Below, piece by piece: positions 4,827-5,393 of a DNA stretch of 9,973 nt; the stretch's first letter is position 1, and every line of letters begins with the position of its first letter. The notes beneath the pieces are model-generated. The model was not told the DNA's origin and searched no databases. It saw nothing but the letters and a program-made list of their open reading frames with translations. The translations under genes were made by a program, and so were the position numbers. The stretch is from a virus (lineage: Duplodnaviria > Heunggongvirae > Uroviricota > Caudoviricetes): the IMG/VR virus record IMGVR_UViG_2645727991_000023, positions 1-9,973 of that record; one strand, given 5' to 3'.

Positions 4827-5166
4827 TAGCTAACCAACGAAGCTAAGGTTGGTAATTAAGGAGTTCTCCACGGGTGAGGTGGAGTGCGTGCGCCGGACAC
4901 GGGTGAGCATCCGGCACTGACAGTTTACTGAAAGGATATTTCCCTGAAAAGTCAGGGCATAACGCGAAAGCGCACGGCGAGGTAGCTGGTTCATAGATAG
5001 CCTGTCGTTAAATTTTCGTCGACCGTGCGCTTCCGGTTGTGGCACTCCGCGAAATGGCGCGGCGGTAAGTATGGCGGGGTTATTCCTTCCCCGTTGAGGA
5101 CACCGGGTTGTCAGGTTGACCATACGCTTAAGTGACAACCCCGCTGCAACGCCCTCTGTTATCAAT

Positions 5167-5224
5167 TTTCTGGTGACGTTTGGCGGTATCAGTTTTACTC
5201 CGTGGCTGCTCTGCCGCCCTTTTT
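5167..5224 (+). ncRNA. dicF: DicF-like sRNA (ftsZ-targeting prophage sRNA) with 3' U-tract
   Basis: Sequence TTTCTGGTGACGTTTGGCGGTATCAGTTTTACTCCGTGGCTGCTCTGCCGCCC followed by TTTTT matches my recollection of the 53-nt E. coli DicF to within a base or so. Located between the YdfC-like and DicB-like ORFs in an ORF-free region. The 5' end is approximate, since it would be made by processing. Confidence 0.7.
5202..5224 (+). terminator. Rho-independent terminator-like hairpin plus T-tract at the DicF 3' end
   Basis: GC-rich stem (5202-5206 pairing with 5213-5217, including one G-U) with loop TGCTCT, followed by CC and TTTTT (5220-5224). Short stem, so probably a partial terminator allowing read-through to the downstream genes. 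Confidence 0.5.
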
Positions 5225-5393
5225 AAAGTGAATTTTGTGATGTGGTGAATGCGGCTGAGCGCACGCGGAACAGTTAAAACCAAAAACAGTGTTATGGGTG
5301 GATTCTCTGTATCCGGCGTTAATTGTTAACTGGTTAACGTCACCTGGAGGCACCAGGCACTGCATCACAAAATTCATTGTTGAGGACGCGATA

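Follow-up and report, generated by a model that had tools for sequence, protein, structure and literature searches.

DicF is a small RNA (sRNA) that blocks cell division and pairs with ftsZ and other messenger RNAs. In enterobacterial sRNAs of the type of ArcZ, RprA, CpxQ and SdhX, the 3' seed is conserved and the 5' part drifts. ArcZ and RprA are matured by RNase E from longer precursors, and CpxQ and SdhX derive from 3' untranslated regions (UTRs) (review PMC9438474); as with DicF, RNase E frees a 3' fragment made up of a seed and an Hfq-type terminator at the 3' end. A study of Escherichia coli K-12 (Ragunathan et al. 2023, PMC10448788) reports that DicF is processed from the polycistronic dicBp transcript, confirming Faubladier et al. 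1990; that RNase III generates the 5' end of a stable 190-nucleotide (nt) species, which is gone without RNase III and accumulates upon RNase E inactivation; that the 53-nt species needs RNase E; that the main dicBp transcript stops at the DicF terminator, read-through RNA accumulating only with RNase E inactivated; and that no internal promoter was found, dicB having none of its own. Reviews describe DicF as derived from the ydfC 3' UTR, and add a form of 72 nt that RNase III generates from read-through transcripts, and the 53-nt DicF expressed alone from a plasmid has been published as functional. The stretch of DNA analysed here (the window) comprises the 9,973 nt at positions 1 to 9,973 of IMG/VR virus record IMGVR_UViG_2645727991_000023 and belongs to a Qin-like lambdoid prophage of E. 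coli with such a dicBF locus; this report concerns the segment between ydfC and DicF, and above all a 115-nt RNA domain that makes up about a third of it.

By sequence comparison, the domain is more widely conserved than DicF itself: about 80% of the complete genomes of E. coli have it, as do P1-like plasmids. Unlike ArcZ-type sRNAs, the DicF locus conserves its 5' domain more widely, while seed and terminator are swapped. In published K-12 work the 137-nt extension figures solely as precursor or 3' UTR sequence, and no description of the fold of the domain, its conservation or its occurrence without DicF was found in the accessible literature (Faubladier 1990, Faubladier & Bouche 1994 and the P1 genome paper aside). 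What comparison adds is anatomy: the poorly understood 190-nt 'long DicF', which accumulates in stationary phase, corresponds to a discrete, conserved and compactly folded domain rather than to an arbitrary precursor, and the locus can be seen as a cassette built of modules, a scaffold followed by a seed and a terminator that can both be swapped, with seeds being exchanged among prophages. The domain is thereby a defined object for DicF researchers to mutate.

That positions 4827-5166 are the untranslated ydfC-dicF segment of the repressor-controlled early-left (dicBF) transcript, and hence a DicF precursor, is established by sequence identity; it is already established knowledge and, for E. 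coli, ordinary. Over its full length (341 nt) the spacer has 97.1% identity to the ydfC-dicF interval of the Qin dicBF operon in E. coli K-12 (CJ236 record), the locus with published RNase III and RNase E processing, and a preliminary description of the window that had read the region as a probable DicF precursor was therefore correct. The identity to the mapped K-12 precursor includes the hairpin at the 5' end of the 190-nt species. Fig. S1 of PMC10448788 shows the stretch of hairpin arm, domain and DicF that equals window positions ~4982-5219; the published cut 'between positions 813 and 814' (PMC10448788) follows a numbering that is apparently not counted from the transcription start. In a cmscan search, the Rfam DicF model (RF00039) matches with all of its 52 positions at 5168-5219 of the plus strand; the score is 75 bits, the gathering score being 48, and E is 1.6e-15. 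The 3' end is a Rho-independent terminator hairpin, GGCGGUAUCAG..CUGCUCUGCCGCC, followed by CUUUUU, and the match lies between ydfC and dicB; DicF is identified by all three features. The preliminary description had recognized DicF and the U-tract after it from the letters. The 5' end of the 53-nt DicF would, by analogy with K-12, be set by an RNase E cut in the A/U-rich linker, which is swapped for unrelated sequences in other variants.

The preliminary description had placed about 340 nt of hairpin-dense plus-strand sequence, free of open reading frames (ORFs), between the ydfC-like gene and DicF, and the spacer proves to be exactly 340 nt, from the ydfC stop codon (4826) to the DicF 5' end (5167). 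It had also stated that no plus-strand ORF of meaningful length spans 4827-5393, which agrees with the finding of only two ORFs of 36 amino acids with GTG or TTG starts (5025-5135, 5116-5226) besides an in-frame upstream GTG extension of dicB (5289-5582 in the ORF list); the longest stop-free plus-strand stretch in the spacer is 44 codons, and homologues do not show the region as protein-coding. Perfect or near-perfect stems, said to be many, are found at 4965-4977/5023-5035, 5105-5113/5133-5141, 4866-4884, 4892-4915 and 4942-4957. The region was also called GC-rich; it is richer than the window, but modestly, with 53.6% G+C at 4827-5225 against 48.4% in the whole window. The extent of conservation of the structure, which had been left open, can be given as roughly 4965-5150, and a covariation analysis of homologues, as had been proposed, lends support to a structure at 5036-5150.

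Fold of the 115-nt domain

Comparison of its homologues shows the domain to be a predicted four-way junction with a loop-to-internal-loop pseudoknot that is under purifying selection for structure (Table 1). Domain copies were gathered from IMG/VR with two independent anchors, which gave about 125 real copies, about 70 of them distinct. In 69 sequences, 95.9% of cells are paired, compared with 32-56% when the partners are slid, and double-sided changes occur at 10 pairs, a number reached by none of 500 shuffles. The changes are spread over several helices: P0 occurs with GCUGCAAC, GCUACAAC or GCCACAAC and as GUUGUGGU/ACCACAAC; Pb exchanges U-A for C-G in P7-type copies; the pseudoknot exchanges U-A for C-G in P1 (GCAUGG with CCAUGC), with U.G intermediates in other sequences (4 counted); and Pd exchanges U-A for C-G in P1 and P7. 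The Pc hairpin is kept across at least eight stems (CGGGG/CCCCG, CUGGG/CCCAG, CUGGGG/CUCCAG, CAGGUG/CACCUG, CGAGG/CCUCG, GGGGU/ACCCC and others) around a pyrimidine-rich loop of 7-14 nt that contains UCC in most copies; the register of Pc failed in MAFFT and Infernal alignments, and Pc was assessed by folding each variant singly. The loop motif AGGUUGACCAUNCGC is exact in 121 of the 125 copies retrieved through the other conserved block, and its invariance is therefore no artefact of ascertainment.

Folding of the entire region gives a minimum free energy (MFE) of -154.5 kcal/mol (z = -2.79; 0 of 100 shuffles equally stable), but the reverse strand folds as well (z = -3.13), so that thermodynamics alone is no proof of a plus-strand RNA. 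The comparative evidence supplies it: G.U pairs account for 188 of 2580 cells, pairing is 95.9% on the plus strand and 88.6% on the minus strand, and because G.U pairs favour the plus strand, the structure belongs to the plus-strand RNA. The unconstrained MFE fold of the isolated 115-nt domain (-44.9 kcal/mol) has identical helices, as do those of several diverged copies. A covariance model of the domain (R1) finds a single copy in the window with 152.7 bits, the next best match having 8.4 bits; it scores 85-156 bits in 70 loci, including 92-101 bits in P1 and P7. Rfam 15 gives no match to the domain at E <= 10 over 4500-5450, where it returns DicF, a sub-threshold STnc100 and a noise-level mascRNA.

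The arms of P0 and Pd are alike, GUUGUGGC resembling GUUGUCAG and GCUGCAAC resembling GUGACAAC (5036-5043, 5106-5113, 5133-5140, 5143-5150). Because of this similarity partners could be swapped, which underlies the alternative fold preferred by RNAalifold that is discussed below. A 23-nt G-rich insertion lengthens Pc in a P7-like contig (L022 4663-4814).

Table 1. Features of the domain, the DicF precursor and the flanking operon in the window.
Feature	Position	Strand	Sequence or basis
Structured domain	5036-5150	+	covariation, Pc stem swaps, G.U pairs, isolated-domain MFE
P0	5036-5043/5143-5150	+	GUUGUGGC/GCUGCAAC
Pa	5047-5051/5058-5062	+	no covariation
Pb	5063-5066/5102-5105	+	CGGU/ACCG
Pc	5075-5079/5089-5093	+	variable hairpin
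Pd	5106-5113/5133-5140, plus 5114-5115/5127-5128	+	GGUUGUCA/UGACAACC
Pseudoknot	5069-5074 with 5120-5125	+	GUAUGG with CCAUAC of the Pd loop
Hairpin P-1	4965-5035	+	inverted repeat 4965-4977/5023-5035, 92% complementary
A/U-rich single-stranded linker with RNase E site (..AUCAAU/UUUCUGG.., slash at the predicted cut)	5151-5166	+	DicF model position and published RNase E dependence
DicF sRNA (seed, terminator hairpin, U tract)	5167-5224	+	RF00039; terminator-like site 5202-5217, then T-run
Module A (ydfC-linked untranslated segment, three small hairpins)	4827-4962	+	sequence
ydfC-like gene, 72 amino acids (upstream cistron of the operon)	4608-4826	+	PGAP 'protein YdfC' for the identical 14EC001 gene; phrog_1744, E 2e-39
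dicB, 62 amino acids (downstream cistron)	5394-5582	+	Pfam PF05358, E 2e-37
Long-range duplex closing the dicF-dicB spacer	5229-5247/5358-5376	+	19-nt inverted repeat I1, 89% complementary
Repressor-like gene	3491-3910	+	phrog_5736
Terminator after the repressor-like gene	3953-3989	+	

Organization and distribution of the locus

Comparison of related loci shows a modular order: ydfC with module A, then P-1, then P0 with or without an insert of about 100 nt, then a swappable seed and a swappable terminator. Of the three small hairpins in module A, the first (4866-4884, CUCCAC/GUGGAG) is followed by one at 4892-4915 (GCCGGA/UCCGGC) whose stem is kept and whose loop is altered in relatives (CACGGGUGAGCA versus CACGGAUAAGAA), and by one at 4942-4957 (CCCUGA/UCAGGG) that has the compensatory variant CUCUGA/UCAGAG in relatives and is decayed in K-12. 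Phages of the HannyBb/L032 type have neither module A nor ydfC. The basal stem of P-1, AAGCGCACGG(CGA)/(UCGa)CCGUGCGCUU, is conserved, and its apex is variable, having been replaced many times. All lambdoid types have a helix of at least 10 base pairs that ends 2-3 nt before P0, in at least three unrelated versions: AAGCGCACGG/CCGUGCGCUU in the window, GAGAGCACUC/GAGUGCUCUC and UGAGGGCAUUUA/UAAGUGCUCUCA. Counting 190 nt back from 5219 leads to position ~5030, within the 3' arm of P-1, which is by analogy probably an RNase III substrate; because the 5' end of the 190-nt species maps inside this arm, the RNase III product would start essentially at P0. As a side observation, the 3' arm of the pre-domain hairpin (10 nt before P0) is GUGCUCUCUUC or GUGCUCUCA in L050, L073 and L004 (cdtI), which resembles the nut/rrn boxA sequence UGCUCUUUA; this boxA-like stretch sits in a stem, and the window version GUGCGCUUCC (5026-5035) is less similar.

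Of 5426 complete E. coli genomes, 4326 contain the spacer, the copy number in a genome reaching 8. In a blastn search of phage genomes, query positions 210-332 (window 5036-5158) match cdtI, Stx2c phages, Ayreon and 2H10 at 88-89%, and query positions 221-317 match P1, P7, SJ46 and RCS47 at 78-82%. Matches also occur in about 500 plasmids; the majority come from Escherichia and Salmonella, are non-mobilizable and measure ~90-130 kb, and most have the match region and identity of P1. A scan of genome contigs with a motif of 14 specified bases returned nearly all chance matches in unrelated phyla, with the exception of L165 of E. albertii. Among the sequences scanned, Rfam DicF was found only in K-12 and HannyBb and was absent from P1, P7, cdtI, pPE4 and phiSTEC1589; what is shared is therefore not DicF but the stretch that precedes it.

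In P1, an annotated 'dicF-like region' (NC_005856 68791-68892) overlaps a copy of the domain that directly follows the C1-controlled promoter Pban. The -10 element lies at L003 2453-2458, the domain at 2486-2610 (92 bits with R1) and a terminator at 2619-2645, leaving a gap of ~20-30 nt between promoter and domain. P1 thus shares with the window the domain, an intrinsic terminator after it and a promoter under the control of a phage repressor, but contains nothing at the gathering score of the DicF model, the likeness being in the upstream domain; it has no hairpin of the RNase III type, and transfer RNA (tRNA) genes, tciABC and ban lie downstream instead of dicB. The pre-domain hairpin is absent from P1 because Pban itself sits close upstream of the domain.

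An intrinsic terminator follows the domain in every version, within ~10-60 nt. Linker ('seed') and terminator occur in at least nine versions, among them canonical DicF, the DicF seed with another hairpin and other seeds with DicF-like hairpins. Sampling by the block after the terminator, which is independent of the domain, gave 124 loci: the domain is present in 96; in 27, a pentaloop caps P0 (GGUUGUR-RAUAA-CRAC) and the seed is UGCUGUGUGUAG; and one (L305) has an independent clean deletion, GUUGUGGC-AAUCA-GCUACAAC. P0 is retained in both deletion types. A second widespread seed, UUGCUGUGUGUAGU, accompanies a DicF-like terminator, without the domain in 27 loci (among L293-L325 and L008) and with it in L050 and L073; RNAs with this seed are likely sRNAs with targets other than those of DicF. 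In vB_Apl-pPE4, deposited as an Actinobacillus phage (L005 1481-1720), the 5' arm of P0 is replaced, and the tail of the domain and the linker are duplicated after the terminator.

Possible functions of the domain

By identity with K-12, transcription from the repressor-controlled promoter would end at the DicF terminator or read into dicB, RNase III would cut the hairpin at 4965-5035 to give an RNA of ~190 nt, and RNase E would cut the linker at ~5166/5167 to give the 53-nt DicF. Comparison shows the predicted make-up of the 190-nt DicF to be the P0-closed domain, the linker or seed and the terminator, the domain being its extra body beyond the linker and the 53-nt DicF. In P1 and P7, the Pban transcript of ~180 nt would be an RNA of about the same size, made directly, and in lambdoid prophages the abutting RNase III hairpin would recreate that 5' boundary inside a polycistronic RNA. 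After the RNase E cut, a compact RNA of ~137 nt, nearly all of it folded domain, is predicted to persist; it would escape the published Northern blots because those used DicF probes (oligo table, PMC10448788).

Because the 53-nt DicF is functional alone, conservation of the domain reflects something besides DicF base pairing. The domain may determine how stable the long form is and when DicF is released or, alternatively, may serve as a platform for binding of a host factor. It appears not to be filler, coding sequence or a DNA site, and it is rather probable that it is an autonomous accessory RNA module acting on or through the RNA itself. A bolder reading, in which the domain is an undescribed phage RNA class with its own function, common to lambdoid prophages and P1-type phage-plasmids, and DicF and the other seeds interchangeable 3' tails, is possible and must be called doubtful. 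Such a domain would appear soon after derepression, forming the body of an RNA of ~180-190 nt, and might bind RNA polymerase, a ribonuclease, Hfq or ProQ, another host protein or a small molecule, for instance to modulate termination at the terminator next to it or to act as a decoy. An activity of its own, if it has one, would make the domain a new regulatory RNA of phages in a bacterium that is among the best studied.

Several observations weigh against a folded module with a function of its own. The sequences are close kin, with 87% mean column identity, so that independent covariation events are few. Pa is invariant and without covariation, half of the pseudoknot is invariant too, and the support for Pb and for the pseudoknot consists in each case of one double change and wobble intermediates. 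RNAalifold, which does not allow pseudoknots, prefers a nested fold that keeps Pa, Pc and the pseudoknot helix and loses Pd and most of P0; this alternative beats its controls as well, with 4 covarying pairs versus 10, and there may therefore be two conformers. The MFE fold of the whole 197-nt species in the window differs from the covariation fold and is not significant (z = -1.54), and P0 is not evident in the copies of P1, P7 or pPE4. The domain is optional, and its function dispensable, since 27 of the 124 loci exist without it. Finally, the ~137-nt product is a prediction.

The best-surviving competitor of an accessory module is passive structure, in which the hairpins do no more than shield a long untranslated stretch from Rho and nucleases and provide sites for RNase III, and the conservation of the domain is due to the young age of the mosaic block and not to any importance of the fold. 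The entire 340 nt is hairpin-dense, most copies are >95% identical, the domain can be deleted, and Pa and half of the pseudoknot never vary and so carry no covariation information, all of which speaks for passive structure. This explanation is nevertheless unlikely, as the flanks, the linker, the terminator and the apex of P-1 have been swapped repeatedly, whereas the domain keeps 78-100% identity between lambdoid and P1-type phages, which have no other neighbouring sequence in common; helix changes are compensatory or wobble-compatible, the Pc hairpin survives at least eight stem replacements, and loop nucleotides are near-invariant even when not used for ascertainment.

Processive antitermination by a cis-acting RNA is the next explanation to be weighed: the domain, like the put RNA of HK022 or the EAR element of Bacillus, which is described as compact and pseudoknotted, would stay with RNA polymerase and allow it to pass the adjacent terminator and later ones into dicB, exo, xis and int in lambdoid prophages or into the tRNA genes, tciABC and ban in P1. 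The compact pseudoknotted fold of the domain is EAR-like, and its position fits the idea: in every version the operon has its first intrinsic terminator after the domain, and in cdtI/Stx2c, pPE4 and P1 the domain lies, as nutL and putL do, near a repressor-controlled promoter. The strong-looking P1 terminator (8-base-pair stem, UUCG loop, U6) comes directly after the domain with ban behind it, 2.6 kb downstream and with no other annotated plus-strand promoter; dicB likewise has no promoter of its own. No N-family protein is found among the small early-left ORFs, and the one relative here with an annotated N, phiSTEC1589, has the domain deleted. Antitermination is quite unlikely all the same, because in K-12 the main dicBp transcript goes no further than the DicF terminator, and read-through RNA builds up only once RNase E is inactivated; the 27 domain-less loci among the 124 keep the terminator and the downstream genes, and N is not detectable in 20 of the 21 domain-less loci with enough upstream sequence, in a search with two N-family queries. 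Moreover, the domain is in single copy, with none on the rightward operon, and a processive antiterminator needs no constant adjacency to a terminator.

The put RNA of HK022 has a length of ~70 nt; its two stem-loops form a V shape with a triplex, and there is a copy in the pL operon and another in the pR operon (PMC9378689). Put and the domain are alike in being structured nascent RNA in an early lambdoid operon without N at the usual place, upstream of terminators and sometimes promoter-proximal; they are unlike in that the domain has 115 nt, a four-way junction with a pseudoknot, one copy and dispensability in many relatives. Homology to put was rejected, since R1 with filters off finds no match in the put regions of HK022 (27600-33000; best 6.6 bits, E 0.4), which leaves functional analogy only. 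A trade-off between the domain and N, suggested by phiSTEC1589, in which N is present and the domain absent, was also rejected on the same 20 of 21 loci and two queries.

A leader sensing a ligand or factor, as in riboswitch-like attenuators, would gate the adjacent terminator, and hence the toxic downstream genes, by the state of the aptamer. Its expected elements can be pointed out, namely a stem that closes the fold, a four-way junction with a pseudoknot, nucleotides in junction and loops that hardly vary and an intrinsic terminator behind them, together with two mutually exclusive conserved pairing schemes, a resemblance of the P0 and Pd arms that makes strand swapping conceivable, and pairing of GGCGG in the domain with CCGCC in the 3' arm of the terminator in the 197-nt MFE fold of the window. 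The 3' strand of P0 and the terminator, however, have neither overlap nor conserved complementarity; the terminators are self-contained hairpins, set apart by 9-30 nt or more and replaced many times, that of P1 lacking GGCGG; Rfam gives no riboswitch match, about one locus in five can do without the domain, and there is no candidate ligand. Such sensing is very improbable.

Protein coding on the minus strand (a 111-codon TTG-start frame, 4830-5165) has next to no probability, since this frame, although stop-free for 111 codons in both the window and K-12 and in part called a 54-amino-acid hypothetical protein by PGAP in 14EC001, is not conserved as a frame, being no longer than 77-96 codons in 10 of the 19 distinct spacers of full length, and has mosaic junctions inside it, no Pfam family, no annotation in most RefSeq records, variable sites distributed 6/6/10 by codon position without a clear third-position excess, and aligned domain segments of 126-132 nt that differ by non-multiples of three. 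A tRNA-like element, considered on account of the mascRNA match in Rfam (E 9.7) and the tRNA genes in the P1 operon, was rejected, as ARAGORN finds none in the window.

Neighbouring sequences and genes

The dicF-dicB spacer contains a block that is conserved even in relatives without the upstream domain. It is closed by the long-range duplex of Table 1, which is probably the second RNase III site that gives the 3' end of the 72-nt DicF. The duplex encloses ~110 nt, which STnc100 (RF02076) matches at 5231-5371 with 34.1 bits, below its gathering score of 47, and this spacer is not assigned to that family. The DicF seed GGUGACGUU (5172-5180) is perfectly complementary to AACGUCACC (5336-5344) in the same spacer, maybe by chance (9 nt in 600); because of this complementarity, the seed could be masked in read-through RNA.

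The plus-strand order in the window is the repressor-like gene, a terminator, ydfC, the 340-nt spacer, DicF, dicB, a ydfD-like gene, the exonuclease gene, xis and int; the minus strand holds replication genes and a cro-like gene. Positions 4827-5167 are 100% identical to E. coli strain 14EC001, where the counterpart lies between ydfC and dicB and the early-left operon continues with a DUF1482 gene, the exonuclease gene, xis and int to the host gene rspB. The gene dicB is reached only by read-through of the DicF terminator. Upstream of ydfC, a leader at 4548-4590, GGAUACCACCUCGCCUGACGUGGUUAAAAGCAGGCA, contains the hairpin ACCAC..GUGGU, is joined directly to the P-1 hairpin in phages of the HannyBb/L032 type and probably represents a conserved start of the early-left transcript, at its 5' end; a simple consensus scan found no promoter there.

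The window and the Qin prophage of K-12 share the locus, the gene order, DicF, the terminator and the hairpin arm to which the 5' end of the 190-nt species has been mapped. They differ in that the window prophage is without ydfA and ydfB, in whose position, between the repressor gene and ydfC, it has a minus-strand ORF of 68 amino acids with a zinc ribbon (4315-4521; ECs_2282 family, phrog_4852). The window also keeps xis and int, and in its exonuclease gene (5864-8337) the loss of a single nucleotide has produced two ORFs that overlap (5864-7738, 7558-8337), where K-12 has an IS2 insertion. The intact exonuclease gene of 14EC001 (L002 6038-8512) is otherwise 99.96% identical, and the split in the window is either a pseudogene or a sequencing error.

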